From Opitutales bacterium (GTDB lineage: Bacteria; Verrucomicrobiota; Verrucomicrobiia; Opitutales; PNEW01): DNA of 64,000 nt. The translations under genes were made by a program, and so were the position numbers. Under the pieces are notes generated by a model. The model did no database searches and was not told where the DNA came from. It saw nothing but the letters and a program-made list of their open reading frames with translations. This document shows, one piece after another, positions 5,724 through 26,257 of the stretch (its first letter is position 1; every line of letters starts with the position of its first letter). Where the stretch lies: the NCBI GenBank assembly GCA_965197745.1, contig CBDANS010000007.1, positions 960,001 through 1,024,000 of the forward strand, in the 5' to 3' direction.

Positions 5724-7057
5724 TGATCGGACCCCGTTATTCGTACCAATTTTTAAGAGAGAGAGTTACCGGGTGTTAATGGTTTTAGGATTGATGTATA
5801 GGAGTGATCTTGGCGAAGTGAGGGCGTAGCCCGAACGCGGCCAAGATCTGAAAGGATACTGACCAACTCCAGTGGACTTTTAAAGCCTAAACGCCTATGG
5901 GGATGTTCATTATTGTAGGGATGACGCCATGGTTCGATTACCCTTTGCGCTTCAGCTACGCTGAGCAACACATCAGGGTTCAGACATGAGCGTTTCGCTA
6001 TGTCGTCACTACGTTCCTCGGTACATCGCGTAAGCGGTTGTGAAACGACTCAATGAAACCGTTTGTTATTCTCGCTTTGGCTCGTTGAGGGGTCGCTTCG
6101 CTCGGTAGCCAGGGACTGCCCGAATCGCTATAGATCGCCTTGATGTTTTTGTCGGACAACCACTGCTGCACTTGATGAGCGCTGAACTCACTGCCGTTGT
6201 CACTACGGATATAGCTGGGAGTTCCCTCCTCTTCAATGGCTTCGCTAAGCACAGAGAAGACATCAGTTGAGGGGAGTTGACGAGCGACCCGGATACGCAG
6301 ACATTGACGCGTCTATTCATCGATTAAGGTCATCATCTTTAAGGGACCGCCATGGTCTGTGCGATCATGGACAAAGTCCCAGGACCAAACGTGATTGCGA
6401 CCGATTGCTCTAGTTGGAGGCCCCGTAGAGACCCCTTGACGGGGTCTGCGCTTTTTTGGGGGCTTTACTTGCAGCCCTTCTGAACGGCGTACCGCCTGGA
6501 CAAACTTCCTGCTTGTTGTCCAGTCTTCCTTTACGAGCAAGGCACGGATACGCCGGTAACCGTAGCGGGGATGTTCCCAGAACAAGGTTACAATGCGCTC
6601 GGCCAACCGCTGAACTTTCCTCCTGGCTTGCTTGGGCTGGTAGCGGTACGTTGACCCACTGAGACTGAGATAAGCACAAGCCCTCTCAGCCGTGTCTTTT
6701 ACTCCTCGCTTCTTTTGCTTTGGGCGCACCCTTTTTTTGACCGCGTTTCCTCCCTCACTTGGTTCTTGAGCATTTGATCTGCGCGCTGCTTTTTCAGCTC
6801 GGTGTTTTCTTTTTCCAGCTCTTTAAATCGCTTCGCATCGGCCAGTTCCAAATGGCCATACTTTTTACCCCAGCGATAGAAGGTCTGTTCACTTAGGTTG
6901 TGGCCACCGCAGATTTCCGGCACCGTCTTGCCAGTATCAGTCTGCCGTAATATTACTATGATCTGTTCTGTTGTGTATCTTTTTCTTTTCATTGAGGTTA
7001 TCGGGTTATCCCGATAACCTCTCACTGTTAATGATACCATTTTTTTTGGTCACGCCA
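5724..7057 (-). mobile_element. IS3-family element type A, copy 1 (degenerate)
   Basis: TG...CA termini; orfA MKRKRYTTEQI (ATG at 6992); fragmented orfB with HPRYGYRRI, WSWDF, SDNGSEF, GFIESF; two mini-inserts. Confidence 0.93.
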
Positions 7058-7325
7058 CTCGCAAAGCCAATGCACTAATTCGTCCAGATTCTTTAAGGCC
7101 AATTACAATCTTCTTTTGAATCTATTGACATACAACAACCTCTATTTTGGTCCTAACTTTAGAAATCAACAGCTCATCTGCACAACACAATTTGCAAGAT
7201 AGCACTGGATTTATTGAATCACAAGCTCATACATAAGTAGCTTAATACAAGGTATATAGAGGTAATGTATACTCAACCTACAGATACAGACTATCAATAT
7301 ATTCTCAGATTTTTTAAAAAATTTC

Positions 7326-7370
7326 TTGCATTATACTACTATTGTAGTAATATTACTACATGAGTAGTAA
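7326..7370 (+). promoter_or_regulatory. BlaI/CopY-type double operator over a probably leaderless promoter
   Basis: TACTAC-N4-GTAGTA (7334-7349) and TTACTAC-ATGA-GTAGTAA (7353-7370, over the ATG); TTGCAT/TAATAT promoter boxes, no Shine-Dalgarno. Confidence 0.7.
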
Positions 7371-7752
7371 AAAGAAAATTAAATTAACACGCTTGGAAAT
7401 GGAGGTAATGGAACCTCTCTGGAATCTTAAAGAAGCAACCATTAGACAGATTCTAGATGATGTTTCTTTAGATAAAAGGCCGGCATATACAACTGTTCAG
7501 ACGATTATTAATCGGTTGGAGGATAAGGGTGTTGTTGCCCGAGTTAAAAAAATAGGCATTGCGCATATCTATCGACCGCTAATTAGTCAAAAATCAGCGT
7601 TTAGTAATTTAATTGAAGATTTTGTCACCATATTTGGTGGATCATCAAGTCCGATCATGTCGCATCTTGTTGAAACAGGTAGAATCACTTTGAAGGATTT
7701 AAAAGAAATAGAAATTCTTCTAAAGAAAAACAAGAAGAGGAGCAAAAAATGA
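7360..7752 (+). CDS. BlaI/MecI/CopY family repressor
   Basis: LTRLEMEVMEPLW..AYTTVQTIINRLEDKG..HIYRPLI..FGGS. Confidence 0.93.
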   Translation: MSSKKKIKLTRLEMEVMEPLWNLKEATIRQILDDVSLDKRPAYTTVQTIINRLEDKGVVARVKKIGIAHIYRPLISQKSAFSNLIEDFVTIFGGSSSPIMSHLVETGRITLKDLKEIEILLKKNKKRSKK

Positions 7753-9350
7753 TTAATCCAATATTTATGGACATCTCTTCGCAGTTATTGTTAGTGAGTA
7801 TAGGAAATCACATCTGGCAGGCCACTCTGTTTGGAACATTGATTTTAGGTGTAATGTTTTTACTCAAGAAATCTCCTGCACGAATCAGATTTTATATTGG
7901 ATGGATTGGCCTTATGAAGTTCGCACTTCCATCTGCTCTATTTCTGTTAGTTTTTGGTCGTTTGGATGGGATTATCTCATCATATGATAAGATAATCGGT
8001 GAAGCGATAACCCCTATAAGTATTATACTTACAGAGCCATTATTCCTTTTCGAAAATTCAGCAACTGCTTCATCCACTACAGCATTTTCTATCCTTACAG
8101 TTTTAAATGTTTTAGGTGGAATTTGGGTTTTCATTGCCTTGTTTATCTTTGGTTACTGGCAAATAAGGCTAATAAGATTACAGAGGCAATTAAGTCGTTC
8201 ATCAAATCCATTTCCAGAATTTCTTACCGCTAAGTTAATTGAGATCAAAAATAAGATAGGGTATAAAGGTCTAGTAACGGGGTGGCTTACTGAAAGTAGA
8301 ATAGAACCAGGAGTAATTGGGATTTTTCGCCCCAGGATAATACTTGCTAATGATCTAGTAGATGAACTGACCGAGGAAGAATTAAAAACTATACTCGTCC
8401 ATGAGCTCATTCATATTAAACACAGGGATAACTTCTGGTCCTATTTGCAGATGATTATATTCTGCATTTTCTGGTTTCATCCACTTGTAATATGGCTCTA
8501 TCATCGACTTACACACGAATGCGAGAAAACCTGTGATGAGGAAGTAATTAAATTAACCAATGACAGAGAAGCATACACAACCGGTATATTGAAAGTTTCA
8601 CAATTCACCCTTGGCATACGTATGCCCGGTTTTACTGGAATAACTCAGTCCAAATTGGGATATCGTATTCAATCCATATTAAATATTAAGATACAGAAAG
8701 ATTCAAAAATAATGAACCGATCAATAATTATCATAGTATTAATACTCCTCAGTATTAGTATGTTTACTGGTGGATCCCTTGCTAAAAATGGGGATATAAA
8801 CGAAAATGAAGCTATTATAGAAAAGCTTATTGTAGATCAACCTTATCCCAGTGTTAATGAAGAAGAGAGTATAGTAATCGAAAAAATAAAGCAGTTAATT
8901 GACACAAACGAATATAATCAGGCGCTTGAAATTCTTGAAGAGGCAATAACTGATGATTCAAGCCCAGCATTTTGGCTGATTAAAGGAAGTATACATGCGA
9001 ATGCTAAAGAATTTGAAAATGCTGCTATTGGTTTAGAAAATTTTATAGTTGAATATCCCACATACTTTGAAGCTCAAAAATCTCTTGGGTATGTTTATGC
9101 CACTATGAAGAAATTTGATAAAGCACGTCAGCATTTGTTAAGGGCAATCGAACTCGGAGGTGAAGATGCCAGGTTGTATGGGCTAGTTGGTTATTCTTAC
9201 ACATTAGATGAAGAATGGGTTTTAGCAGAGATGTTTTTCCGTGAAGCTATTAAAAGGGATCCTGCGGAACCATATTGGAAAGATGGTTTAAACTCGGTTA
9301 TAGAAAAGCAAAATAATGTAAGGAGTGTCAGTGTAAAAACATCAGGGTAA
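7749..9350 (+). CDS. M56 (BlaR1-like) membrane metallopeptidase with C-terminal TPR sensor domain
   Basis: NHIWQATL, PGVIGIFRPRIIL, HELIH, FWFHPLV, EKTCDE; TPR-like helices after a further TM; ATGA overlap with the repressor gene. Confidence 0.9.
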   Translation: MINPIFMDISSQLLLVSIGNHIWQATLFGTLILGVMFLLKKSPARIRFYIGWIGLMKFALPSALFLLVFGRLDGIISSYDKIIGEAITPISIILTEPLFLFENSATASSTTAFSILTVLNVLGGIWVFIALFIFGYWQIRLIRLQRQLSRSSNPFPEFLTAKLIEIKNKIGYKGLVTGWLTESRIEPGVIGIFRPRIILANDLVDELTEEELKTILVHELIHIKHRDNFWSYLQMIIFCIFWFHPLVIWLYHRLTHECEKTCDEEVIKLTNDREAYTTGILKVSQFTLGIRMPGFTGITQSKLGYRIQSILNIKIQKDSKIMNRSIIIIVLILLSISMFTGGSLAKNGDINENEAIIEKLIVDQPYPSVNEEESIVIEKIKQLIDTNEYNQALEILEEAITDDSSPAFWLIKGSIHANAKEFENAAIGLENFIVEYPTYFEAQKSLGYVYATMKKFDKARQHLLRAIELGGEDARLYGLVGYSYTLDEEWVLAEMFFREAIKRDPAEPYWKDGLNSVIEKQNNVRSVSVKTSG

Positions 9351-9365
9351 TAAATCTATATTTAT

Positions 9366-9718
9366 CTAATTGGGAGAAAAGTCAAAAGAGGGCAGGTTTT
9401 GCATTATAGCACTTTTTATTTTTTGCGAGTATGCTTGCCCTAGCCCCTTTCTAATATTCCTATGGCGACTGAAGAGATTGAGCGACTCGATTATTCCTTT
9501 ATTATTCCCATAGGGCAGAATACCATCTACTATAAGATCAAATTCTTCTTCAGCAAAAGCGTTGATAGAGTTACGCAGTGCCCTTGCAAGTGATTTAATT
9601 TTTTCTGCCTCCTTAGGAGGCCATGGGCTTGGAAGATGGGGAAGTAATTCATCAGCTTCCATATGAAGAAAGGGGCTGTCTGGTGTAGATAGAAGCTTTT
9701 GGAGGGTGATAGTGACGG
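9366..9718 (-). pseudogene. 5'-truncated gene, possibly P-loop kinase/phosphotransferase-like
   Basis: Frame open up to the IS end at 9719 (..TLQKLLSTPDSPFLHMEADELLP..LIVDGIL); N-terminus missing. Confidence 0.35.
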
Positions 9719-9783
9719 TGGAGTGACCCCCAAAAATCGTACCATTTACAGAGAGAGGTTATCGGGATAAACAGATAACCTCA

Positions 9784-10050
9784 ATGAAAAGAAAAAGATA
9801 CACGACAGAACAGATCATATTAATATTACGGCAGGTTGATACTGGCAAGACGGTGCAGGAAATCTGCCGTGGCAACAACCTAAGCGAACAGACCTTCTAT
9901 CGCTGGGGTAAGAAGTATGACAACTTGGAACTGGCCGATGCGAAGCGATTTAAAGAGCTGGAAAAAGAAAACACCAAACTGAAGAAGCTGCTCGCAGATC
10001 AAATGCTCAAGAATCAGGAGATGGAGGAAACGTTGTCAAAAAAATGGTGA
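9784..10050 (+). CDS. IS3 transposase OrfA
   Basis: HTH: MKRKRYTTEQI..SEQTFYRW..KELEKENTKLKKLLA. Confidence 0.9.
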   Translation: MKRKRYTTEQIILILRQVDTGKTVQEICRGNNLSEQTFYRWGKKYDNLELADAKRFKELEKENTKLKKLLADQMLKNQEMEETLSKKW

Positions 10051-10953
10051 GCCCAAAGCAGAAGAAGCGAGTAGTAAAAGATGCGGCTGAGCGAGGGCTG
10101 TGCTCGCTTTAGAGGGCTTGTACCTATCTCAGCCTCAGTTGGTCAACGTACAGCTACCGGCCCAAGCAGGCCAGTAAGAAAGCTCAGCGGTTGGCCGAGC
10201 GGATTGTAACCCTGTCCTGGGAACATCCCCGTTACGGTTACCGGCACATCCGTGCCTTGCTCGTAAAGGAAGGGTGGGCAACAAGCAGGAAGTTTGTCCA
10301 GGCGGTACGCCGTTCAGAAGGGCTGCAGGTAAAGCCCCCGAAAAAGCGTAGACCCCGTCAAGGGGTCTCTACAGGGCCGCCTACTAAAGCAACCGGTCGC
10401 AATCACGTCTGGTCCTGGGACTTTGTCCATGACCGCACAGACAATGGCGGTCCATTAAAGATGATGACCTTAATCGATGAATATACGCGTCAATGTCTGA
10501 GTATCCGGGTCGCTCGTGAACTCACCTCAACTGATGTCCTCTCTGTGCTTAGCGAGGCCATTGAAGAGGAGGGAGTTCTTAGCTATATCCGTAGTGACAA
10601 TGGCAGTGAATTCATTGCTCATCAGGTGCAGCAGTGGCTGGCCGACAATAAGATCAAGGCAATCTATATCGATCTGGGCAGTCCCTGGCTACCGAGCGAA
10701 GCGACACCTCAACGAGCCAAAGCGAGAATAACAAACGGTTTCATCGAATCGTTTCACAACCGCTTACGCGATGTACCGAGGAACGTAGTGACGACATAGC
10801 GAAGCGCTCATGTTTGAACCCTGATGTGTTGCTCAGCGTGGCTGAAGCGCAAGTGCTAATTGAACAATGGCGTCAGACCTACAACCATGAACATCCCCAC
10901 AGTCGTTTAGGCTTTAAAAGGGAATTATATACCTAAGTTACCAAAATTATAAT

Positions 10954-11100
10954 TTACTTTTTCTTCCGTTTTGATGGATCAGGTCGTTTGCTGGCTGCAA
11001 ATATTGTCTTTGCTACATATTCGGGGGATTCATTTATTACCAATGTCCGAGTTTCAGGACGACCTTGTTTTCTTTCTGGTTTTTTATTTTTCTTAGACAT
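10954..11100 (-). CDS. Small basic passenger protein (48 aa)
   Basis: Manual translation MSKKNKKPERKQGRPETRTLVINESPEYVAKTIFAASKRPDPSKRKKK*, starts 6 nt after the preceding ORF. Confidence 0.6.
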   Translation of the reverse strand: MSKKNKKPERKQGRPETRTLVINESPEYVAKTIFAASKRPDPSKRKKK

Positions 11101-11106
11101 TAATTC

Positions 11107-11418
11107 TTATTTATTTTTGATCATATCAATGGTAATTTCTCCGGTCTTGGTTTCTGCGAGTTCAACTCTTGTAAGAATATGCTTAAAGAATTTCTCTAAG
11201 GTATCTTCTTTTACTTTTTGGTGAATCATATGAATTGAAAATGTGTCAATTTTGATCTTTTCGCTGATATTAAGCTGTTCATAAAGGTTCATATCCATAA
11301 TTTCTTCAAACGTATCATATGACTTTATGAGGTTATCGAGCAAGAATTCTGCTTTTTTCCTTAGCGAATACTCTATATCTTGGGTATCAATTTTTCCTCT
11401 CTTCTTTTTGAATATCAT
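11107..11418 (-). CDS. Hypothetical passenger protein
   Basis: 103-aa ORF tightly packed between the transposase and the small ORF. Confidence 0.6.
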   Translation of the reverse strand: MIFKKKRGKIDTQDIEYSLRKKAEFLLDNLIKSYDTFEEIMDMNLYEQLNISEKIKIDTFSIHMIHQKVKEDTLEKFFKHILTRVELAETKTGEITIDMIKNK

Positions 11419-11430
11419 TGTATTTCCTAA

Positions 11431-12395
11431 TCAGGCAGCTTTGGAGCCAATGGGTGATGCAATCAAATCTTCGTATTTAAGTTGTTTACCAACCATTCTA
11501 CGTGCAATCGTCGACATTTGTGTGAGCGTATCCTTACTACGAATATTTTGACGCCCGGCAAACTCGTTAATATACCGATGAAGGTGCTTAATACTCATTT
11601 TATGAAAAGTTCCATGATAACCACGTTTAAATAACGCCCAGAATGACTCTATGCCATTCGCGTGTGCCATCCCATTTACAAACTCACCAGTGCTGTGGCA
11701 AACGGATTTATGTTGGAATATATCTGACAATTGAGAATAGGCTTTGTGTTCATCCGAATATACAGTTGATCCCCGCTCTACAGATTGTCTAACAAAACCT
11801 GCTAATACACCATCTCCAGTTAATTTAATTGTACTAGCTACAACTTGCTCTAACCTCTCCTGATCGTTCTTTTACGCCTACTATAGCAAGTTTTACCAAC
11901 AGTGCCATGTCCAGATTTCAATTTCTTTGATCCATGCTTATTGCGTTCTTTTCCACCGACATAAGTTTCGTCTACTTCCACTGCACCACGCAATTTCCTG
12001 TCACCTATGATAAATGCTTCGCGAATACGTTGCATCATATGCCAAGCTGATTTTTGCGTTATTCCCAATTCGCGATGCAGCTTCATACTAGACACTCCCT
12101 TGAGGCTAGTTGTTGCCATATAAATTGCAATCGCCCACTGCTGTAACCCAAGTTTGCTAGACTCCATAACTGCTCCCTTGCGAACGCTAAAAAATTGCCT
12201 GCAATCTTTGCAACGATACCGCATTGATTTATGGGTTGTGTGAACGCACTTATCAGAACCGCAATCTGGGCAAGTTACCCCATCTGGCCATCGTTGCTTT
12301 TCAAAACATGCTTCCGCAGCATCATCATTGGGGAACATTTTAAACAGTTCTATGACTGTCAATCCTTCTCGATGTGATCTTCCTGGTCCTGACAT
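11431..12395 (-). pseudogene. IS1595 (ISXO2-like) transposase, frameshifted
   Basis: Zn ribbon CPDC..CKDC, KGVSSMKLHRELGITQKSAW, VEVDETYVGG, TVYSDE, NGIESFW; frame breaks around 11845-11890. Confidence 0.92.
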
Positions 12396-12598
12396 AATTT
12401 TTTACCTTATTTAATTGATTTGACTATGGTAACTATACTACCATTAAATATAATAATGTCAAGAGATTTAGTTAATTTTTTCCTTTTTTAAACAATGATA
12501 ACAACAAACGAAAGCATGAATTAGGTTTCTTGATCATTATTCTCTGAATTGGTGTTGGTTTAATTATTATTCTTTAATAATATGTGAATTAAGTGGGA

Positions 12599-13183
12599 TC
12601 ACACTAGTAGTTTACACCTCTCTAGTGTGATCCCATATTCCTCAACAGAACTCAGGGAACCAGTTGCTTCAAATTCATCTCCACGGTTTAGCCCCTTAAG
12701 ATCACCTTTCCAAGAGCGTTTTTTAAATTCGAAATACACACTGACCTCATCCTCTGTTTCGGCGTAAACCTGAATGCAATCATCCTTGTCATCAACATCT
12801 ATTACTTTGGCGCGCATGGTTAGTCTGGAGCCAATGTGTGGCTGAATAATTGGATAAGCCTGAATCGATGTCAGACCTGAAATCATACCCACCAACTCCT
12901 TGGGCGTTTTTCGTGTCAAAAGATCATCAGTATGTGACTGAACAACTGGGCCTGTTCCCAACTGAACTCGCCCCTCGCCTCCAGGGCTGATGTTTTCAGT
13001 CGATGGTTGGCTAAGATTGTTTAACTTTCCCTCTAGCGTAGCAATCCGTTTCTTATAGTTCCGACCAAATATTAATGTGCCTAGCATACCGGTGAGCCCT
13101 CCAAGTATGAGCGACATGACAATCCAAACCCAACGTGCCATGATGATCTGCAGTAAACCACACAAGAAGTTATCCCAATCCAT
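12599..13183 (-). CDS. Membrane-anchored passenger protein, possible C-terminal OB-fold
   Basis: N-terminal TM helix; C-terminal beta-rich ..LKGLNRGDEFEATGSLSSV..ITLERCKL. Confidence 0.65.
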   Translation of the reverse strand: MDWDNFLCGLLQIIMARWVWIVMSLILGGLTGMLGTLIFGRNYKKRIATLEGKLNNLSQPSTENISPGGEGRVQLGTGPVVQSHTDDLLTRKTPKELVGMISGLTSIQAYPIIQPHIGSRLTMRAKVIDVDDKDDCIQVYAETEDEVSVYFEFKKRSWKGDLKGLNRGDEFEATGSLSSVEEYGITLERCKLLV

Positions 13184-13617
13184 CCTATCCGATTATGCAC
13201 CGTAACATAAATCGTCAAGATTTTTGGTAACTTTGGTATATAATTCCCCTTTAAAAGCCCACTAGAGTTTGTCAGATTCCTTTCAGATCCTGGCCGCGTT
13301 CGGGCTACGCCCTCACTCGCCAGGATCTCTCCTATACATCAATCCTAAAACCATTAACACCCGGTAACTCTCTCACTTAATAATTGGTACTAAAAACGGG
13401 GTTCGATCACGAAGCAATTTGATGATCTCCATGAAGGGGCTAATTATGACTTAGAAGTAGATTCAACCTCAACTAATGCATCTGAAAATGTTAATTTAAT
13501 TAAGACATTTTTGATGCTTAAAGATCCTGGTCTGAAAAACCACAATAATAATATCAGCAAAGAAGACATCTGAGGTCAGAGTCTGATTTATGCTATAATG
13601 AAAATTACTATAAAATA

Positions 13618-14103
13618 TTAGGCTTTTTCAATTCTTGCTTGTTTCTTTCTAAAGAAGTTTGGGTTGATTACAAATTCGTACTTCAGCCCATCGGGGTCAC
13701 AAAAGAATGTAGCATAATAACCTTCGTTGTATTCAGTGCATTCACAAGGTGGATCGGTAATTTTACATAATCCTTTTTCTTCCAATGGAACCAGAACTGT
13801 TGAGTAAAACCGATCAACATCCTCTTGGGTGGCTGCACAAAATGCAATATGATGATGATGCCCAACTGCCCAACGAATATATTCGACAGAAGACTGCTCC
13901 TTTTGGGTTTGGGTTATGCTGAATTCATGGGGCGTATTAAGATCCCATCTTTTGTAATCTTGAAATGGATAGTCTCCCTCAAAAACGCTGTCGGTCAGCT
14001 CATAGCCTAAATATTCAAACATCGGACGGTAAAATTGCGATGAACGCTTCACATCCGAGACGACGATGCTTTGGTGATGTAAGAGTCCTCGGTGTGTATT
14101 CAT
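13618..14103 (-). CDS. VOC/glyoxalase family protein
   Basis: LHHQSIVVSDVKRSSQFY, HHIAF, YYATFFCDPDGLKYEFV. Confidence 0.9.
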   Translation of the reverse strand: MNTHRGLLHHQSIVVSDVKRSSQFYRPMFEYLGYELTDSVFEGDYPFQDYKRWDLNTPHEFSITQTQKEQSSVEYIRWAVGHHHHIAFCAATQEDVDRFYSTVLVPLEEKGLCKITDPPCECTEYNEGYYATFFCDPDGLKYEFVINPNFFRKKQARIEKA

Positions 14104-15077: not shown

Positions 15078-16328
15078 ATGATAGAAAAAATACGAATAAC
15101 TTTTGGGGCTCTGATTTTGGTTTTAACATTAGTCATACCACTACTAGCTAAGCAGGAAAACTCCAGATCTAGACAAATTAAAGAGGCACTTGAGCACGCG
15201 CGTCTTGACCTCATTGAGATTCGTCGTGACATTCACCAACATCCCGAGGTCTCAGGAAAGGAGGAGCGCACATCGCGTCTAGTATCTGAGCGATTGAGAA
15301 CTCTTGGATTAGAGGTGGAGACTGGCGTCGGCGGTCATGGTGTAATCGGCGTTCTTAAAGGGAACAAGCCTGGAACTGTTGTTGCTTATAGGGCCGACAT
15401 GGATGCTGTTTATAGCGAAGCTCTCGATCCCGTACCCTTCCGTTCTAAGATATCAGGTGTCCGACATATTTGCGGCCACGACATTCACACCACTGTAGCT
15501 TTGGGTGTTGTGGAAGCTCTGGTAGCGGTTCAAGATGATCTCCCAGGTACAGTGAAATTTATTTTTCAACCTTCAGAGGAGAATTGGATGGGGGCCTTAG
15601 CTATGATGCGTGATGGGGTACTTGAAAATCCCACTCCAACCGCTATCTTCGCAGTCCACTGTTTTCCAGGGGAGGTTGGACAGATCGGAGTTGTGGATGG
15701 TATGGTTCTTCCAGGGGCTGATCAAATAGTCTTAACGGTCAGTGGAAAGGGGGACACCGAACACGCGGCTCAGACTTATGCAGACATCATTTCAAGCCTG
15801 AGTACCATTGGACCTCTAGGAAGCAGCGGTCCGTCAGACTGGGAAAGATTCATATATGCGCGTGCACACGTCAAAATGGACCCTTCAAATTCGAGCCAAT
15901 GGATTGTGAGAGGATTCGTGAAAGCTTCTAGTGAAGAGGCCTACGCGTCGGCGAAAAGTACGTTCAATAGTCAACTTTCAGATCTCACATTATCGGATAT
16001 CCACTACAAACTTGACTATCAAGATCGGTTATATCCCGACTTGATTAACGACTCCTATCTAGTAAAATCTTCACTAGACCCGATTCGTATTGCTATCGGA
16101 GATGACGGACTGATTCTTGTACCCGTAGCGGTCCCTTATTTTGGTGAGGACTTCGTTTACTACCAACAAAAAATCCCCGGAGTCATGTACTGGTTGGGTG
16201 TTTCCAATTCCGAGAAAGGATTCGTGGGAATGCCGCACAGCCCTGGATTTGTAGCCGATGATGAGTCCGTCATAGTGGGGGCGCGTGCAATGTCGGCAGT
16301 TTTATTGGACTATCTGGAGAACCACTGA
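15078..16328 (+). CDS. M20-family amidohydrolase with signal peptide
   Basis: RRDIHQHPE, RADMDA, HICGHDIH, FIFQPSEE, GEDF, PHSP; its stop codon is the first TGA of the IS. Confidence 0.92.
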   Translation: MIEKIRITFGALILVLTLVIPLLAKQENSRSRQIKEALEHARLDLIEIRRDIHQHPEVSGKEERTSRLVSERLRTLGLEVETGVGGHGVIGVLKGNKPGTVVAYRADMDAVYSEALDPVPFRSKISGVRHICGHDIHTTVALGVVEALVAVQDDLPGTVKFIFQPSEENWMGALAMMRDGVLENPTPTAIFAVHCFPGEVGQIGVVDGMVLPGADQIVLTVSGKGDTEHAAQTYADIISSLSTIGPLGSSGPSDWERFIYARAHVKMDPSNSSQWIVRGFVKASSEEAYASAKSTFNSQLSDLTLSDIHYKLDYQDRLYPDLINDSYLVKSSLDPIRIAIGDDGLILVPVAVPYFGEDFVYYQQKIPGVMYWLGVSNSEKGFVGMPHSPGFVADDESVIVGARAMSAVLLDYLENH

Positions 16329-17615
16329 CCTGTCCCCGTAAAACTGGACCAGGAAAGATTTAGTCTGGCGTGGGTGGAAAACCTAATAAAAATAGGAGAA
16401 AGAACGATCCATGAAAAGCAAAGGTTCACGAGGCACAGCCGAGAAGGCCTGACAAACGATATAATAAAGAACAAATCATCTATGGCCTAAGGCAGGTAGA
16501 AGGCGGACGAAGGATTGCCGAAGTGTGCCGAGAGTTAGGGGTGAGCGAACAGACCTACCATCGATGGAAGAGTAAATACGCGGGCATGGGAATGAGCGAA
16601 TTAAGACGGCTGAAGCAACTCGACGAAGAGAACGCTAGTTTAAAGAAGCTGGTGGCTGATCTGAGCCTGGACAAGCACATGCTGCAGGAAGTTATCTCAA
16701 AAAAGTTATAAAGCCAGTGGGCAAGAAGGCGATTGCTGAGTGGTTAGTGGAAGCTTATGCAGTGAGCAAACGCCGGGCGTGCAGGCTGATGCAGTTGTAT
16801 TGGTCGAGTTATAACTATCAGCCGGTGATGAGGGACGAACGCGCGCTGATTGTGCGCATACGAGACCTCGCCGCCGCGCGTGTGCGCTACGGGTATAGGC
16901 GAATCACGGTGTTATTAAAGCGGGAGGGCTGGTTAAAGCGGGAGGGCTGGTCGGTAGGAAAGAAACGCGTCTATCGGATCTACAAGGCTGAAGGGCTGGA
17001 AGTGCGCACGAAGAAACGTAAGAAGCGTGCCGCGCAAAGGCGGGTCTCACTGCCCGCGGCTTCAGCTGCCCAGGAACGCTGGTCGATGGACTTTATGAGC
17101 GATCGGCTGGTCAACGGCCGCCCTTTCCGCATTCTCACCGTTGTCGATCAGTATACCCGAGCTTGCCCACTGCTTCTGGCCGATACGTCCATCGGTGGTC
17201 ATAAAGTCACTGCAGCACTTACGAAAGCCGCTGAACGAATCGGTCTTCCCGAAACCATTACCGTCGATAATGGTCCTGAGTTTGCCGGCAAAGTAATGGA
17301 TCAGTGGGCTTATGGCCATGGCATCGAGCTGGATTTTATCCGGCCAGGTAAACCCGTAGAAAATGGCTATATTGAGAGCTTCAATGGACGCTTACGAGAT
17401 GAACTTCTTAACACGGAGATATTTTGTACGCTCGCTGAAGTGAAAGAAAAACTTGAAACCTGGCGGCTTGATTATAATACTCAAAGACCACACAGCTCTC
17501 TGGGCTATCGGCCTCCGGCCGAATACGCCCAAAGAGCCATATCTAAGCAAATTAAAACCCATACCACCCTGCCGGATCTAACACTAGCACTGGTACAGTA
17601 AACGGGAGCAGGTCA
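16326..17615 (+). mobile_element. IS3-family element type B (IS407-like), copy 1
   Basis: IRs TGACCTGTCCCCGT / TGACCTGCTCCCGT; orfA from 16411 broken by a 29-nt insert; orfB 16717-17601 with [26 protein letters not shown]. Confidence 0.93.
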
Positions 17616-17665
17616 CCCGGTAACTCTCTCACTTAATAATTGGTACGAAATACGGGGTCCAATCA
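17616..17665 (+). mobile_element. IS3 type A right-end remnant
   Basis: CCCGGTAACTCTCTCACTTAA..GGGGTCCAATCA matches other type A right ends. Confidence 0.85.
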
Positions 17666-17732
17666 TAACATTCCGGAGTATGTGAGCTTTTTTAGTCGTA
17701 CTCGTTTGTTAGACTAAATTGACGGCAAGCTT

Positions 17733-18989: not shown

Positions 18990-19063
18990 GTTTTTCAATT
19001 AGTCAAAAAGAGTTGGAAGGGGTCAGGCTTTGTATGCTGGTTTTATACTATATTGCCGGAATA

Positions 19064-19370
19064 TGACCTGCTCCCGTTTACTGTAGCAGAGCCAGTGTTA
19101 GATCCGGCAGGGTGGTAAGAGTTTTCATTTTCTTCTGCCAACGAACAAAACTACCTCGGTATAAGAAGTTCATCGCGTAAACGTCCATTGAAAATATCGA
19201 TATAACCATTTTCTGCGGGTTTACCTAGCCGGATAAAATCCAACTCAATGCTGTGGACATAAGCCACAGCATCGAGTACTTTACCTGCAAATTCAGGCTC
19301 ATTATCGACGGTCATGGTTGGGGCAAGATAGAATTCTTCCGAAGCTTTCTAAAGTGCGGCCGTAACCGCG
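19064..19370 (-). mobile_element. IS3 type B 3' remnant, heavily decayed
   Basis: Right IR TGACCTGCTCCCGTTTA at 19064 and degenerate transposase C-terminal sequence; upper boundary approximate. Confidence 0.8.
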
Positions 19371-19514
19371 TTCCACTATAATTGTATTATCAAGAGGGAT
19401 AGACGCAGACCCGTCTTCGTCTCTCGATTACGCCGTGGCAAGCGAGGATTGGTAATAATCTATACTCAGTACTCGCTTAATTGAGGACACGATTAAGAGT
19501 TTCTGATATCTGGC

Positions 19515-19813
19515 TTACGGTTTTGAAGCTTCGACTTCAAGTCTGAGCATGCCAAGATGGGTCATGCCGTCATCGTCTGGAGGGTGGCGATGGAGATACT
19601 CGTCAATAGCCTGTTGAAGAAACTTGTCGCGCTCACTTTCGGGAACTCGCTGTGTGTAGGGCAACCATGTTGTCCGCACCCAACTTTTGAACCCAGGGAT
19701 GTCATGGACCATGTCTTTCGGAATCAATTCAACGCGCTTTACAGCGAAACCAACTTCGGACAGCCAGAGATGATAATCAGCAGGATCATAGAAATTATAG
19801 GGAAAAGTGAAGT
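19515..19813 (-). pseudogene. C-terminal part of SAM-dependent (Tam-like) methyltransferase
   Basis: ..FTFPYNFYDPADY..ELIPKDMVH..WVRTTWLPYTQRVP..RLEVEA; 5' part lost at IS end 19814. Confidence 0.7.
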
Positions 19814-21242
19814 TGATTGGACCCCGTTTTTCGTACCAATTATTAAGTGAGAGAGTTCCCGGGTATTAATGGTTTTAGGATTGATGTATATGAGAGATCT
19901 TGGCGAAGTGAGGGCGTAGCCCGAACGCGGCCAAGATCTGAAAGGAATCTGACAAACTCTTGTGGGCTTTTAAAGCCTAAACGACTATGAGGATGTTCAT
20001 GGTTGTAGGTCTGACGGCATTGTTCGATTACCACGTGCGCTTCAGCCACGCTGAGCAACACATCAGTGTTCAAACATGAGCGCTTCGCTATGTCGTCACT
20101 ACGTTCCTCGGTACATCGGGTAAGCGGTTGTGAAACGGTTCGATGAGACCGTTTATTATTCTCGCTATCGCTCGTTGAGGTGTCTCGCTTCGCTCGGTAG
20201 CCAGGGACTGCCCGGGTCGATATAGATCGTCTTGATGCTTTTGTCGGACAACCACTGCTGCACTTGATGAGCGATAAATGGCTTCGCATGTCGTCGCTTT
20301 GCTCCTCGGAACACTGCCATTGTCACTACGAATATAGTGGGGGGATTCCCTCTTCATCGACGGCTTCGCAGAGAACCGAGAGGACCTCGGTTGAGGTGAG
20401 CTGTCGAGCGACCCGAAGGCGCAAACATTTTCGCGTATATGTCTTCGCTTCGCTTGAGTGTAGTCGCTTTCAGATCCTCGGTACATCGATTAGGGTCATG
20501 ATTTTCAGTGAACCTCCATTATCGCTACGATCATGGATAAAGTCCCAGGACCAGACGTGATTGCGATCGGTTGCTTTAGTGGGAAGCCCAGTAGAGACCC
20601 CTTGACGGTGCCTACGCTTTTTCGGTAGCTTTACCTGCAGTCCTTCTGATCGTCGTACTGCCTGGACAAACTTCCTGCTAGTTGTCCAACCTTCCTTTAA
20701 AAGCAGGGCACGGATGCGCCGATAACCGTAACGGGAATATTCCCAGGATAAGGTCACAATCTGCTCGGCCAACCGTAGAGCTTTCCTGCTGACCTGCTTG
20801 GGCCGGTAGCTGTAGGTTGACCAACTGAGGCTGAGATAGGAACAAGCCCTCCAAAACGAGCACAGCCCCTTCTCAGCCACCTCTTTTACGGCTCGCTTCT
20901 TCTGCTTTGGCTCACCCCTTTTTTGACAGTGTTTCCTCCAATACCTGATTCTTGATCATTTGCTCAGCGAGCAGGTTTTTTAGCTCGGTATTTTCTTTTC
21001 CCAGTTCTTTAAATCACTTCGCATCGGCCAACTCCAAGTTGCCATACTTATTACCCCAGCGATAAAAGCTCTGCACGCTTAGGTTGTTCCCACCGCAGAC
21101 TTCTTGTACCGTCTTATCTGTATCGGCTTGACGCAGTATTGCGATGATCTGTTCTGTTTGTATCTTTTTCTTTGCATTGAGGTTATCTATTTATCCCCAT
21201 AACCTCTCTCGGTATATGATACCATTTTTAGTGGTCACGCCA
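19814..21242 (-). mobile_element. IS3-family element type A, copy 3 (four mini-inserts)
   Basis: Both termini present; orfA/orfB decayed; inserts at 20078, 20155, 20280 and 20441. Confidence 0.93.
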
Positions 21243-21666
21243 AGGGGAAGTGAAAGTGGTATGAACAGCAATGTTTGTAAAATCATGGTAATCCTTGAAA
21301 AAGGTTGCGTAATGTATTCCCGGCTTGGCACATGTGATACACAACGACAACGTATAGTAAACCCGGACAATTGATTGATTTCAATATGACTCTAGACTCT
21401 ACAGCACACTTGGGCAATAAAGGAGCCCATGTCCAGTAGAAAGCTGAAGGAAACCTCCAAGCAATCCTTGACATGATGGTTCGACGTCGTGATAGGTGTC
21501 TGTACAGCAGGTTTATAGCAAGCCCGGCAATACAACCTAAAACACCTCGTTATCGCGGATAAAGCCGGGTCAGACAGCATTGTCAGGGTCCAGTTGTGAT
21601 TAAACTTGCCTCTACTGGGCGCATAAATTCATTGTTTCCAACACAAAGGTCACTTAATCGATATTA

Positions 21667-21849
21667 TTAAATCCACACTTAAATTCTTGCCCGTTTCCTG
21701 GCTGAAGATCACCAAAAAAAGTATGATTCCTGCCCATGTCAGGAAATTAGAGGAAAATATAAATTATTATTGTGCCGTTATTTAAGTATAACTAATTGTT
21801 AACAAGCAGTTTATTATAAGGCATTATTGAGTCCCGTTCATAGTCGGTT
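21667..21849 (+). repeat. att-like island end, copy 1
   Basis: Homologous to 28381-28583; last 36 bp identical. Confidence 0.75.
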
Positions 21850-22171
21850 TCATCGAGTCGTTTCACAACCGATTACGCGATGTACCGAGGAACGTAGTGA
21901 CGACATAGCGAAGCGCTCATGTTTGAATCGTGAAGTGTTGCTCAGCGTAGCTGAAGCGCAAGTGGTAATCGAACAATGCTGTCAGAACTATAACCATGAA
22001 CATCCCCACAGTCGTTTAGGCTTTAAAAGCCCACAAGAGTTTATCAGATTCCTTTCCGATTTTGGCTGCGTTCGGGCTACGCCCTCATTGCATCCAAAAC
22101 TTGACTTCCTCTACCAACTTAAACCTCTCCAGACTAACTCTCCCGGTGGACCAGTTTGTGTAACCCGACCA
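21845..22171 (+). mobile_element. IS3 type A-related 3' fragment with a different right end
   Basis: GF.ESFHNRLRD + 36-nt insert + CLNREVLLS; ends GGACCAGTTTGTGTAACCCGACCA. Confidence 0.8.
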
Positions 22172-22333
22172 CGACGAATACTTACCTTCGAAACATTTTA
22201 ACTTAACTGGAGATGGCTATTTTAAACATCAAAATTGAAGGTCAACGAGTAGGGTCGTAATACGCCTTTCGTCGGATTTTGGATTGCAGTAAATGTAACG
22301 TGAGATACCTCTACGCGTAAAAAGCGTTCAGAA

Positions 22334-22690
22334 GTGAGATGGAGAACTAAATTCGTCCGATCAAGTAATGCCGATGTGCCAAATCGTCCCGGTATTTATG
22401 TGATCGGCCATATCGATGACACGAATGGATTACCAATCCGTAACCACTTTGTGTATGTTGGAATCACTAAAAATCTGAAGAGGAGGTTGAGAGAGCATTC
22501 ACATCTTACAGAAACGAATCCAAAACTCGCTATGTATTTAAGCCAAAATAGAACGAAATCAAGATTTTGGTTTACGACAGAAATACCTAATAAAGAATTG
22601 GCTGGATTAGAATCTGAACTTATCAGAACACTCAGACCTATCTACAACTCACAGAAGAAGAGAATTCACAAATCAGGAGGGAACAAATGA
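22334..22690 (+). CDS. GIY-YIG nuclease family protein
   Basis: VPNRPGIYVI..FVYVGITKNLKRRLREH..LESELIRTLRPIYN. Confidence 0.88.
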   Translation: MRWRTKFVRSSNADVPNRPGIYVIGHIDDTNGLPIRNHFVYVGITKNLKRRLREHSHLTETNPKLAMYLSQNRTKSRFWFTTEIPNKELAGLESELIRTLRPIYNSQKKRIHKSGGNK

Positions 22691-23264
22691 AAGACCTAAA
22701 TGAACAACTGATAAATGACGTAACAGAACAAGAAGAACGGAAGAGTCAAGCGTTGAATCTGCTTTTGAACGAATACCGGGAGAAGAAGGGGCATCTGATC
22801 GGATTAACTTCTCAAATGGGCTTAACTCGTTCATACGTCACGAGCAGTTCGCTTGAATGGATAGGAGAACATCTTAGATTTGCAAACCAACTCCCTATAT
22901 TCAATGAAAAGATAGATAAAAAAACTGGGAAGATTATAATCGATCGTGAAACACTAACTCTAATTCAACAACGTGAACTTGATTGGAGACGTCAGTATCC
23001 TATGACGCTTTATTTAGCCAAAAGAAAACAACACAAATTTCCACCAATGTTAGTTGTGTCATGGCAACCTTGGGTAGGTAATCCAAATGCAAATGAGTGG
23101 AGTAACGACAAAGCTTTGAAGGATAGTATTAACGCTCAAGGATTAGATAATGAATCTTACTATGTTGATATCGAAATTACCGATACTGATCAACTCTACG
23201 TAATCGACGGTCAACACCGACTCATGGCAATACAGGGACTAAGCAATCTTTTAAATAAAGGTAA
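22687..23264 (+). pseudogene. DGQHR-domain (DndB/ParB-like) protein truncated by IS
   Basis: IQQRELDWRR, HKFPPMLVV, LYVIDGQHRLMAI; reading frame runs into the IS end at 23265. Confidence 0.85.
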
Positions 23265-24525
23265 TGGTTGGACCCCGCGTTTTAGTCCACTTTCAATGAG
23301 ACAATCTCCGTGATTGTGGTTTCATCAGTAAAGGTACCGGCTCCGGTCGTCCTCCGGACTCCCTCCGCCGGAACCTTGGGTCTGTAATTTTCTTGGCATA
23401 TTGCGCCGGAGTTAGCAAGCCCAAGGAGCGATGGGGACGAATCTTATTATAATATTCCAGCCAGTCTCCTATCACCACGGGGGATTCAGTGAGGGTGTAG
23501 AGCAGCTCGCGATCAAGGCATTGCGCTCGTAAACGACTGTTGAAGCTTTCGATATATCCATTCTGCCAGGGACAGCCAGGATCGATGTAAATCGTTTCGA
23601 TCTGGTTCTCGCGCAACCAGCGCTGTATAGCTTGCGCGATAAATTCTGGACCATTGTCAGAACGAATAAACAGGGGTGCGCCATGCCGGGAAATCATTCG
23701 CTGCAACAGAACCAGTACCTCGGCTGCTTTGATCGCGCGGTCAGCATGAAGAACGTGGCACTCCCGCGTATAGTCATCGATGATGCTGAAAACACGCAGT
23801 TTGCCGCCACGCTGGGTGTAGTCCGAAACGAAATCCCACGCCCACACGTGGTTCTTGTGTTTGGCCTCTTGAGGCAAACCCGTGGACAGGCCGCGGCGGC
23901 GCTTTCGAGGTTTGGGCGGCGGTACTTGCAGTCCCTCTTCGCGGCGTAGGCGCTGCACCTGTTTCTTGTTTACCCGGTAGCCCATTTCACCCAGCATTTG
24001 ATTGATTTTTTTGTAGCCAAGAGTCGGGTGCTTCCGCGACAGGCGAACGATCGCAGTCTCCAGCAACTGCTTCTTATCAGGCACAGGCTTGGAGCGGTAG
24101 CGCAGGGTCGAGCGGTTGAATCCCAGCCATCGGCATATGGCCCGCCCGGAACACGACAAAGCTCGCTGAACTTTTTCGGCGACGCCACGCTGTCGCTCCG
24201 GGCTCAGATGTTTTTTTCCAAGGCTAGCTCCAGGGCCTTTATATTCAGAAGCTGGTCAGCGAGCAGTTTTTTAAGTTCAGTGTTCTCTTTCCCCAGCTCC
24301 TTCAACCTTCGTGCCGCCATACTTGCTCCTCCACCGGTAGTAAGTCTGCCGGCTGATGTTGCGCCGGCGGCAGACCTCATCGGTCGTCAGCCCGGCGGCC
24401 TCCGATTCTCGCAGTATACGAATGATATTTTCGGTCGTGTCTCGCGTTTGCTTCATGATCATTTTCCTTCCTTTTGTTGGAAAATCGTCTCAGTAGCAAT
24501 GGACCAGTTTATTGGGACCCAACCA
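23265..24525 (-). mobile_element. IS3-family element type C
   Basis: IRs TGGTTGGACCCC..GTCCA / TGGTTGGGTCCC..GTCCA; orfB 23293-24159 ([23 protein letters not shown]); orfA frameshifted. Confidence 0.92.
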
Positions 24526-24540
24526 CTCCAAGTTTTAATG

Positions 24541-24725
24541 CAAAGTACTCGATCAGTGGGCTTATGGCCACGGCATCGAGCTGGATTTTATCCGGCCAGG
24601 CAGACTCGTAGAAAATGGCTATATTGAGAGATTCAATGGGGACGCTTGGCGGCTTGATTATAATACTCAAAGACCACCCTGCCGGAACTAACACTGGCTC
24701 TGGTACAGTAATCGGGAGCAGGTCA
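24541..24725 (+). mobile_element. IS3 type B 3' remnant with internal deletions
   Basis: Matches type B orfB end and right IR ..CGGGAGCAGGTCA. Confidence 0.85.
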
Positions 24726-24806
24726 TGTTGGGTATATGGATCAAAACTATGATCTAAGAACAGATAAAAATCCGTCATAAATAAAGTAATTAAGCTTCAA
24801 TATCAT

Positions 24807-25379
24807 ATAACGAATCAGATAAGCGGAATAGTAAAGAAAAGTCACAAGATTGACTCGTTGCTTATTATAGTATCTTTAGCTGGTAAGTATTACGATGATA
24901 AATCTGATGTAGATTTGATTGCTTATTGTAATAGGTTACCAATGTTAAAAGAAATCCGAGATTTGTTTAAAGATGATTCAATTCAAAAAACTTTAATCCC
25001 TTATAATGGATTTCAAATCCACTTAACTAACTTTGAAATTAAAGCCAGCATCATATTTTTAAATGTATCTTTTATTGAAAAATTAGTAAGAAAATATCCA
25101 AACATTAATTTCGGCGAATATAGAGAGTTGTGTGATAAATTAATTAACTCAAAGGTTCTTTTTGATAAAAAACATCTAATTTCTCCATATAAAAATCAGG
25201 TTAAGAAAATTCCAGACACTCTATAGAAAAGGATAATAGAGATGAATTACTATAATTTAAGATATTATTTCATTAAGGGTGAGATCCGATTAGACGGTGA
25301 AAGAGGAAACTGGATTATGGTAAATCAGAGAATTCATCAAAGTGTAGAGAAGCTACTAACATTAATATATCTGTTGAAT
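24807..25379 (+). pseudogene. Nucleotidyltransferase-domain protein (decayed)
   Basis: IDSLLIIVSLAGKYYDDKSDVDL resembles the hGS..SDhD motif; in-frame TAG at 25224-25226, frame continues to the IS at 25380; start uncertain. Confidence 0.55.
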
Positions 25380-26257
25380 TGGAGTGACCCCAAAAAATCG
25401 TATCATTTACAGTGAGAGGTTATCCGGATAAACGGATAACCAAAATGAAAAGAAAAAGATACACAACAGAACAGATCATAGCAATACTCCGGCAAGCCGA
25501 TACCGGTAAAACGGTATCGGAAATCTGCCGTAGCAACAACGTAAGTGAACAGACCTTCTATCGCTGGGGTAATAAGTATGGCAATTTAGAACTGGCCGAT
25601 GCGAAGCGATTTAAAGAGCTGGAAAAAAAATTCACAAGCCTAAGCGAGAAAACCTGCCATACCGAGCTAAAGAAGCTGCTCGCTGATCAAATGCTCAAGA
25701 ATCAGGTGATGGAGGAAACGCTGTCAAAAAAATGGTGAGCCCAAAGCAAAATAAAGGAGTAGTAAAAGACGCGGCTGAAGGGGAGCTGTGCCCGTTGCGG
25801 GGGGGCTTATGCTTATCTCAGCCTGAGTTGGTCAATGTCCAGTTACCGGCCCAAGCTTTCCATTAGGAAAGCTCAGGGATTGTCCGACAAAAAGATCAAG
25901 GCGATATATATCGATCCGGGCAGCCCTTGGCAAAACGGTTTCATTGAGTCGTTTTACAACCGCTTACCCGATGTACCGAGGAACGTAGTGACGACATAGC
26001 GAAGCGCTCATGTTTGAACCCTGATGTGTTGCTCAGCGTGGCTGAAGCGCAAGGGGTAATCGAACAATGGCATCAGACCTACAATAATAAACATCCCCAT
26101 AGTCCTTTAGGCTTTAAAAGCCAACTGGAGTTTGTCAGATTACATTCAGATCTTGGCCACGCTTCGCATAGATCTCTCAAATACAACAATGCTGAAACCA
26201 TTAACGCCCGGTAACTCTCTCACTTAAAAAATTGGTACGAAAACCGGGGTCCGATCA
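25380..26257 (+). mobile_element. IS3-family element type A, copy 4 (internally deleted)
   Basis: Both termini; orfA 25445-25738 with in-frame insert; several hundred bp of orfB deleted near 25885. Confidence 0.92.

Follow-up and report, generated by a model that had tools for sequence, protein, structure and literature searches.

The closest described counterparts of the elements reported here are short repeats and inserts of several kinds. Small dispersed repeats (SDRs), numbered SDR1-8, were reportedly described in heterocystous cyanobacteria by Elhai et al. in 2008. Rickettsia palindromic elements (RPE) are in-frame palindromic inserts within open reading frames (ORFs), group I introns and inteins home into conserved sites with co-conversion of the flanks, and translational bypass elements are known from T4 gene 60 and, as the 27-55-nucleotide (nt) 'byps', from Magnusiomyces mitochondria. 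The subject of this article is a set of twelve inserts of 28-45 nt that interrupt transposase genes of IS3-family insertion sequences (IS) in a stretch of 64,000 nt, here called the window, from the genome of an Opitutales bacterium (Verrucomicrobiota). With moderate confidence, these inserts are explained as members of a lineage-restricted family of modular dispersed repeats of about 20-45 nt, a few of which landed in transposase genes and were then multiplied together with their IS hosts, as disruptive passengers of elements that draw their transposase from elsewhere.

Repetitive extragenic palindromic (REP) sequences form the other main group for comparison. Di Nocera et al. (2013; PMC3733652) describe REP superfamilies with GTAG and CGTC/TGTC tags, intragenic REPs of Opitutus terrae among them, give the CGTC/TGTC-tagged members stems of 8-9 bp that start with A/T, loops of 4-5 nt and a CCA tail, and mention RPE. 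REP and REPIN sequences and their RAYT (Y1/HUH) transposases are treated by Bertels and Rainey (2011; PMC3116915), and further features of SDRs were drawn from PMC5861425 and PMC4390886.

The window corresponds to C7:960001-1024000 of the genome designated G000 (4.45 Mb in seven contigs). The interrupted genes belong to IS3-family elements by several features: orfA matches HTH_Tnp_1 and orfB matches HTH_21 and rve in Pfam, orfB lies in the -1 frame relative to orfA, as is apparent once the inserts are replaced by A, and some copies are flanked by 4-bp duplications, within the 3-4 bp usual for the family. Three IS3 lineages are affected in G000, namely lineage 1 (35 full-length copies), lineage 2 (40 copies) and a third type. 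Insert sites in orfB are named after the codons at which they lie (IDE/Y, GSE/F, PWQ/NG and RDE/C), and the state of a copy is given in this order, with 1 for filled and 0 for empty. The IS copies of the window, their inserts and the corresponding empty sites are the following:

5701..7070, minus strand, IS3 lineage 1 copy 1, state 0,0,1,1, ORFs otherwise degenerate
5988..6023, minus strand, RDE/C insert, 36 nt, differing from the other copies at one position
6065..6107, minus strand, PWQ/NG insert, 43 nt, two-module composite (TACCGAG..CGACACC with TCAACGAG..CGAGAATAAC)
9718..10920, plus strand, IS3 lineage 1 copy 2, truncated on the right, state 0,0,1,1
10473..10486, plus strand, empty IDE/Y site of copy 2, ATCGATGAATATAC (ATCGATG-A-ATATAC)
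10602..10615, plus strand, empty GSE/F site of copy 2, GGCAGTGAATTCAT (GGCAGTG-A-ATTCAT)
10690..10732, plus strand, PWQ/NG insert, 43 nt, in frame and open, Q replaced by 15 residues
10774..10809, plus strand, RDE/C insert, 36 nt, net +35, in-frame TAG
16326..17650, plus strand, third IS3-type element with orfA insert, right limit approximate
16425..16453, plus strand, orfA insert, 29 nt, TTCACGAG-hairpin-CGAGAAGGCCTGAC, in place of a single A behind ATGAAAAGCAAAGG
19814..21242, minus strand, IS3 lineage 1 copy 3, state 1,1,1,1, ORFs otherwise degenerate
20078..20113, minus strand, RDE/C insert, 36 nt
20155..20199, minus strand, PWQ/NG insert, 45-nt variant, last base T
20280..20311, minus strand, GSE/F insert, 32 nt, net +31
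20441..20483, minus strand, IDE/Y insert, 43 nt, net +42, in-frame TGA
21845..22087, plus strand, fragment, 3' part of an IS3 lineage 1 copy
21883..21918, plus strand, RDE/C insert, 36 nt
25380..26250, plus strand, IS3 lineage 1 copy, internally deleted
25631..25658, plus strand, insert in the orfA/frameshift region, 28 nt, TTCACAAG-hairpin-CGAGAAAACCTGCC, boundaries less certain
25928..25939, plus strand, empty PWQ/NG site, TGGCAAAACGGT (TGGC-A-AAACGGT)
25974..26009, plus strand, RDE/C insert, 36 nt
27168..27190, plus strand, empty orfA site, from another copy of the third IS type, ATGAAAAGCAAAGG-A-AAACGC

The twelve inserts thus occupy six sites. The first-pass annotation of the window had counted 11, all of them at the right coordinates. 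Each begins T(A/T)C... on the IS coding strand and ends in C (once in T), followed by A on the 3' side, with no flanking duplication. The uniform orientation relative to the coding strand, which had been noted at first, holds for all 12 in the window but not genome-wide: an antisense unit of 24-25 nt occurs in 6 of the 40 lineage 2 copies (alignment columns 341-364, e.g. C4:58898-58924; TACCGAG-CRTAAG-CGACATCTACC), immediately following the A-run in the orfA/orfB frameshift window. The 36-nt RDE/C insert was matched five times in the window at no more than one mismatch and not once in 100 shuffles, and the GCGAAGC motif was found five times in the four orfB inserts (154 nt in all), where its genome rate predicts 0.014. 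By nearest-neighbour folding the four orfB inserts were not stabler than their shuffles (DNA z = -1.0 to +1.3), under parameter sets that possibly give GNA triloops no credit. The inserts do not stem from faulty assembly, since contigs from four public runs of three studies hold both filled and empty forms; the comparison is one of assembled contigs, and the joints seen are the empty alleles of other IS copies. No Rfam family matched eight unit-bearing loci above its gathering score, the best match, to group-II-D1D4-3 (23.5 against a threshold of 32 bits, E = 0.048), being treated as chance, and the exact 32-nt GSE/F insert gave no match in JGI metagenomes. The RDE/C insert contains CGTAGTGACGACA, and lineage 1 reads CGTAGTGACAACG just 5' of the GSE/F site, so that 10 of the first 11 positions agree; by a rough estimate this likeness is only marginally beyond chance.

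All of these inserts are built on one plan. A unit consists of a T(A/T)CCGAG head, a variable mini-hairpin, often with a GNA triloop, a CGACA(T/C)C block and a short tail that ends in C and is followed by A. One form of it is TACCGAG-hairpin-CGACATCNNNC; the core measures 7 + 3-32 + 7 nt, to which a tail of 4 nt is added. Modules of another type (T-CA-CGAG, hairpin, CGAGAA...C) may be fused to such a unit, and the PWQ/NG insert is a composite of two modules. When the genome was searched for TACCGAG, 3-32 variable bases and CGA(C/T)A(T/C)C, the motif was found 97 times in G000, and the majority of the copies lie outside IS, in the arms of palindromic repeats resembling miniature inverted-repeat transposable elements (MITEs), in tandem heptamer arrays and in other small non-coding repeats. 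The earlier view that the inserts form one motif family, which no known mechanism or enzyme explains, is borne out; the idea that they specifically target IS3 genes is not supported in the form proposed. Among the 97 copies there are 59 distinct hairpin parts, with GAA, AAA and GTA as the commonest loops. A stem of at least 3 bp is present in 48% of them as compared with 15% of shuffles; stems are mostly of 2-7 bp and GC-rich, and loops are mostly of 3 nt. The base before the unit is C or G in 90 of the 97, and the end reads NNNC followed by A in 80.

The family has a narrow range. Strict core counts reached 87, 131, 143, 41 and 145 (the last in G040) in five of 41 Opitutales genomes and were at most 3 in the other 36, while the reversed motif, taken as a control, gave at most 4 per genome. 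A scan of 185,579 species, one genome each, with a 23-nt pattern returned 69 loci, of which 54 lie in five Opitutales/Verrucomicrobiota records and the remaining 15 are single matches, our own estimate of the number due to chance being about 17. The composite of the PWQ/NG insert recurs as a 42-nt unit, with identical single-stranded blocks and different hairpins, in heptamer arrays of G015, in MITEs of G040 and in four metagenome contigs; the composite two-module unit moves as one piece. Conserved unpaired blocks beside freely varying stems suggest that a folded single strand may be what is recognized.

Two of the non-coding settings deserve a closer description. The MITE-like palindromic repeat lies at C7:1685265-1685420, at C6:723780-724050 and at about 30 other places of G000 outside the window, and is made of two arms with a central spacer, the order within an arm being TTGTCATTGCGAGG, hairpin, GACG(C/A)(G/A)GC, TACCGAG, hairpin, CGACATC and TTCCATTCCAGG. 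Two inverted TACCGAG..CGACATC modules thereby flank the spacer, and at least one copy of the repeat is without the TACCGAG module. Heptamer arrays (AATCCGC/AATCGGC) that carry units are found in G000 at, for example, C6:1235011, C6:562613 and C7:1472018, and locus L017 of G015 is a heptamer array of AATTAC plus spacer that also carries units. Such arrays with hairpin units recall the STRR/heptamer contexts of cyanobacterial SDRs.

Compared by description, the Opitutales family appears to work like the SDRs of the Nostocaceae. In both, units of about 20-30 nt (about 21-27 nt for SDRs) have conserved ends and a variable, compensated stem-loop; both are set in tandem heptamer arrays, here those of G000 and G015, and in miniature transposons, and both form composite or nested units. 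Insertion points are precise, that of SDR5 being between the third and fourth base of HIP1, the phylogenetic range is narrow and no enzyme is known. The Opitutales units differ in that they belong to another phylum, the Verrucomicrobiota, replace one or two target bases and occupy fixed codons of IS3 transposases. No cyanobacterial genome in the 23-nt pattern scan had more than one match, at chance level, and the carriers are Opitutales, which would place the units outside SDR1-8 and the Nostocaceae. For SDRs an RNA intermediate has reportedly been proposed, whereas a profile search found no RVT_1 reverse transcriptase in three carrier genomes, G000 and two genomes of another genus in the same family (G001 and G002); this argues against RNA copying as a mechanism now at work.

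The junction between unit and target was defined by comparing filled and empty alleles. At five sites (IDE/Y, GSE/F and PWQ/NG, together with the orfA unit of 29 nt and, in a repeat other than IS, a unit of 34 nt) one A is lost: the unit starts directly after G or C, and the empty allele has exactly one extra base, an A. At three others (RDE/C, GSE/F in lineage 2 and the 24-25-nt unit in lineage 2) the empty allele has AG where the filled one has unit-C followed by A. The empty RDE/C site, which had been deduced from an IS3 consensus, is real, as 26 of the 35 lineage 1 copies read GATG-AG-TGT; this change may be described equivalently as AG swapped for an insert ending in ...C plus A, or as the loss of one base together with a change of G to A, and the AG sites are most simply described as a T...CA unit in place of a two-base AR. 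The heptamer array of G015 has the hairpin unit lodged between two AATTAC repeats, in a position that a single spacer base takes up in other parts of the array. The fit is less clean for one MITE pair and for a degenerate copy of lineage 2. No duplication was found at the insert junction of any of the filled/empty pairs examined. Several assertions of the first-pass annotation are confirmed by these alleles: the inserts are true insertions, with real empty forms for IDE/Y, GSE/F and PWQ/NG, and make no target duplication, and the loss of exactly one A is correct for these three and the orfA site, AG being replaced at RDE/C.

The insertion step would accordingly be one that places a unit directly after C or G in exchange for one A (or AG), without duplication, and we know of no transposition chemistry that predicts a junction of this kind. 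No contiguous deletion of the filled sequence regenerates the empty allele, because the filled allele is itself without one base. Restoration by contiguous removal, of the intron or bypass type, fails for GSE/F (net +31) and RDE/C (net +35).

A few primary insertions landed in codons of conserved motifs in IS3-family transposase genes. Most of the insert copies in IS evidently arose secondarily, by transposition of filled IS and by short-tract gene conversion, even between two IS3 lineages; the repeated occurrences are mostly not independent insertions but were inherited or passed on. Among the 35 lineage 1 copies, IDE/Y is filled in 28 and empty in 7, GSE/F in 32 and 3, PWQ/NG in 11 and 24, and RDE/C in 9 and 26, respectively. 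The combined states are 1,1,0,0 (23 copies), 1,1,1,1 (five), 0,1,1,0 (three), 0,0,1,1 (three) and 0,1,0,1 (one), and two pairs of sites, IDE/Y with PWQ/NG and PWQ/NG with RDE/C, show all four gametes each. In G001 and G002, which like the other genomes compared are related to G000 and not independent of each other, 16 of about 86 matches were read base by base; all 16, which are copies of lineage 1, bear at least one of the same four inserts, in new combinations that include single-insert copies. The lineage 1 GSE/F insert is also present at the homologous codon in 35 of the 40 lineage 2 copies, within nucleotide flanks unlike those of lineage 1, and lineage 2 has the IDE/Y insert in 2 and the PWQ/NG insert in 1 of its 40 copies. 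In the third IS3 type the 29-nt orfA insert is filled in six and empty in three copies genome-wide, one of the empty ones being that at 27168-27190 of the window.

Movement of filled IS is documented by perfect 4-bp direct repeats that flank 6 of the 23 copies of two 1350-nt bursts, from which it follows that insert-bearing copies transposed. The other 17 are without matching 4-bp flanks, and several of them share one flank with another copy, which suggests recombination between IS copies or nesting in other repeats. The diversity of the four orfB inserts (0.018-0.059) is 2-7 times lower than that of the coding flanks (0.08-0.15), whereas two older lineage 1 indels of 20 and 22 nt are about as diverse as their flanks; the inserts are therefore younger than the IS lineages or constrained. 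Conversion between IS copies must have been frequent, since 74 of 82 variant alleles within the bursts are common to other IS lineages. One lineage 2 haplotype includes filled and empty copies that are alike but for the insert and a neighbouring change of TTT to TTC, as in the presumed donor; each of the two orfA/orfB junction types occurs filled and empty; and a lineage 2 copy with the IDE/Y insert has lineage 1-like bases just 3' of it. Co-conversion tracts are shorter than about 12 nt, both of those examined being 3' of the insert, which would fit, as a speculation, primed copying from a filled template.

Such secondary spread gives rise to a homing-like, site-cognate pattern. As in the homing of introns and inteins, each site has its cognate insert, the sites lie in the most conserved motifs, diverged alleles have one and the same insert at the homologous site and a few flanking bases are transferred with it. 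The Opitutales inserts differ from introns and inteins in having no endonuclease or splicing signals and only 28-45 nt, and in that their removal cannot restore the original sequence.

The 22-nt indel named above is a non-coding insert (CGTTCGGGCTACGCCCTCACTT) at the right end of lineage 1 (e.g. window 13249-13315), present in 33 of the 35 copies, one of the other two being empty and one unalignable. Its diversity equals that of the flanks, and judging from its reverse complement (..GAG-GGCGTAGCC-CGA..), which resembles the core unit, it looks like an older antisense member of the family.

Three of the four orfB inserts break the open frame, IDE/Y by an in-frame TGA, GSE/F by a shift (+31) and RDE/C by a shift (+35) and a TAG, and PWQ/NG alone stays open. 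Accordingly, in copy 2 of the window (9718..10920), in which orfA has 107 codons and matches HTH_Tnp_1, the orfB frame of 228 codons with HTH_21 and rve is open across the PWQ/NG insert and ends within the RDE/C insert. The orfB sites adjoin conserved motifs outside the catalytic triad, according to our reading of the D,D-35-E spacing in translated orfB. The catalytic glutamates, considered as targets, were rejected, the catalytic residues being by their spacing the aspartates of WSWD and SDNG and the glutamate of FIES. A coding backbone VPRSEAK shared by IDE/Y and GSE/F was likewise dismissed as a by-product of homologous heads and tails. When the inserts were replaced by A in silico, 26 of the 35 lineage 1 copies had an orfB of at least 283 codons, the inserts being their only lesions, and the same is true of several lineage 1 copies in G001 and G002. 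Filled IS copies would then be carriers of disruptive passenger inserts, mobilized by transposase from a source in trans. For lineage 2 such a supply is possible, because four empty copies have intact ORFs. Two of these (C4:136859 and C7:1901266) encode a single fused OrfAB of 415 aa that requires no frameshift, and the two others an OrfA of 100 aa and an OrfB of 354 aa.

Several observations weigh against this explanation. No trans-acting source for lineage 1 is visible in the three genomes examined, and no insert-free copy (0,0,0,0) was found among the 35 in G000 or the 16 sampled in G001 and G002, where the shortest full-length match has 1301 nt as against about 1277 nt expected without inserts. 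Inserts with stops or frameshifts are present in every copy of the two bursts (14 and 9 near-identical copies), and likewise in three of three examined copies of a 1345-nt class with about 30 copies in G002; a 27-nt relative of the 28-nt insert at 25631..25658 occupies the same place in these examined copies. The 26 orfB genes that open after replacement by A would also fit inserts that spare function, as would ratios of non-synonymous to synonymous substitution (dN/dS) of 0.12-0.44 between lineages, found also downstream of a frameshifting insert. Tracts shorter than about 12 nt are atypical of ordinary homologous recombination. No enzyme for the insertion was found: none of 13 genes for Y1 (HUH) proteins examined is flanked by repeats, and the Y1 subfamily that accompanies the units is present in 6 of 36 repeat-free genomes as well.

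The expansion of lineage 1 calls either for an unseen source in trans or for inserts that permit some transposase to be made. The second option, in which expression copes with the inserts by tolerance, read-through, frameshifting, bypass or precise removal, while they may act as attenuators of the transposase and leave the filled IS autonomous, has to be judged quite improbable. It would account for the lack of insert-free lineage 1 copies and for full-length matches that all measure at least 1301 nt in G001 and G002, for the fact that all expanding sub-lineages are filled, with 4-bp duplications at 6 of the 23 burst copies, and for inserts as the sole lesions of so many copies; in its favour, too, PWQ/NG is in frame and open and IDE/Y is in frame with a single TGA. 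Against it speak the missing base, which no contiguous deletion restores, and the frame shifts of GSE/F and RDE/C. Bypass elements resemble the inserts in size, hairpins, an internal stop, a Shine-Dalgarno-like GAGGAG (in IDE/Y and GSE/F) and otherwise intact ORFs, but matched take-off and landing codons that would restore the frame were not found on inspection. The low dN/dS may reflect divergence that predates the inserts, which seem to be of more recent origin than the IS lineages, and the eight de novo substitutions since the bursts (four synonymous, four non-synonymous) are too few for a test of selection. Lineage 2, moreover, has intact empty copies beside filled ones. RPE are comparable as small palindromic repeats in protein genes, with PWQ/NG in frame and open; the orfB units differ from them in that a stop or a frameshift is present in three of the four, and in affecting IS genes exclusively. 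A further reading, which is improbable, regards the mini-elements as hyperparasites of IS3 with a new insertion chemistry: a single-stranded hairpin oligonucleotide would replace one base (S/A) at conserved codons of the transposase and home into every related copy, the IS staying mobile through leaky, bypassed or removed inserts. If true, these would be the smallest site-specific mobile elements known, with a built-in throttle on transposase expression.

The origin of the primary insertions admits other rival explanations. Purely vertical inheritance of old indels during IS diversification, with no mobile mini-element, agrees with the identical states shared by burst copies and with the 20-nt and 22-nt indels that evolve like their flanks, but it is extremely unlikely given units in unrelated non-IS contexts and other genomes, the presence of one of the inserts in the matching codon of another IS3 lineage whose flanks differ, the four-gamete violations and the reduced diversity of the inserts. 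A host defence system that writes inserts into transposase genes and so silences IS elements, as had been suggested at first, is very unlikely, and no evidence for it was obtained. What speaks for it is that all four orfB sites lie in conserved transposase motifs and that no genes but those of IS were found to be interrupted by units: of 68 candidate sites 35 are IS copies, and none of the other 33 is convincing or has the architecture of hairpin plus CGACAY, the one at C4:197633 having TTCCGAG...CGACAT and no hairpin. The effect on non-IS genes that the first-pass annotation had proposed to look for was accordingly not seen. Restriction to IS genes would, however, also be expected from purifying selection against insertions in host genes, most of the family is located in non-coding repeats, expansion took place in those IS lineages that bear inserts and no candidate machinery was found. 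Longer elements with the same termini, also proposed at that time, were not noticed among the repeated TACCGAG contexts, in which no dedicated search for them was made.

A mechanism for the primary insertion step within the favoured explanation would be offered by a Y1 (HUH) transposase that mobilizes the units as non-autonomous single-stranded DNA elements of the REP/REPIN or IS200/IS605 type. This idea, which the first-pass annotation had already raised, is doubtful. PF01797 (Y1/HUH) genes occur in 22 of the 41 genomes, and relatives of one subfamily of about 330 aa (E <= 1e-20) in all five carriers as against 6 of the 36 others, which makes this protein the sole co-occurring candidate found, a lead rather than a finding; the co-occurrence is loose, was seen among mutually related genomes and was noticed post hoc. 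The 13 Y1 genes examined (one in G000 and 12 in G001, G002, G015, G031, G035 and G040) include two with a single motif nearby. Non-IS copies show no replication-strand bias by GC skew (43 leading, 37 lagging, p = 0.58), in a test confounded by copies carried inside MITEs, whereas the IS200/IS605 mini-elements known as PATEs are biased towards the lagging-strand orientation. PATEs insert 3' of a tetra- or pentanucleotide without gain or loss of bases; the left flank of the Opitutales units has no such conserved sequence beyond a last base C or G, and one or two target bases are lost, which IS200/IS605 chemistry does not predict. With REP/REPIN the units have in common short hairpins, a high copy number, inverted doublets within a larger palindromic unit, as in the MITE, occurrence within ORFs of an Opitutales species and the presence of the Y1 subfamily in all carrier genomes. 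In the terms of PMC3733652, their TGTC tag abuts the hairpin unpaired on the complementary strand, as in CGTC/TGTC-tagged REPs, and Opitutus terrae, of the same order, is reported there to be rich in intragenic REPs. The resemblance to the families described there is incomplete: of their tags only TGTC is present (as the complement of CGACA), stems of 2-7 bp are GC-rich with 3-nt loops such as GAA, AAA and GTA, and the tail is CTCGGTA. Neither do the units have GTAG at the foot of the hairpin, GGTA(G) of the complementary strand lying 4 nt from the stem, and they differ from REP/REPIN by two conserved single-stranded blocks, one on each side of the hairpin, and by a defined junction with loss of target bases.

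The only PF01797 gene of G000 (C6:162763-163802, minus strand) is split by a stop and a frameshift into frames of 199 and 175 codons, and shares 91% identity with an intact gene of 347 aa in G001. Since this candidate protein is broken there, the family may no longer insert de novo in G000. In G040, with a chromosome unusually rich in mobile elements, there are 46 matches to the protein of about 330 aa and 11 to RVT_1, eight of the latter with identical scores in frames of 584 aa. Elsewhere in the window, a full-length 6S RNA (RF00013, 69.1 bits) at 38082-38271 on the plus strand is the sole Rfam match above the gathering score.

A search of a limited collection of papers turned up no description of hairpin mini-elements inside IS3 transposase genes, which is not proof of absence. 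The movement of the smallest bacterial repeats (REP-like and SDR-like, of 20-45 nt) has long been a puzzle, in part because clean filled and empty sites are scarce. The IS copies described here supply many such pairs with a constant junction, after C or G, without duplication and with A or AG replaced, which is a concrete constraint for any proposed mechanism and can be tested in vitro. The inserts pass between diverged IS lineages over very short tracts, and IS3 lineages of which every examined copy bears inserts with stops or frameshifts still expand, which points to mobilization in trans from an unseen source or to expression despite the inserts.

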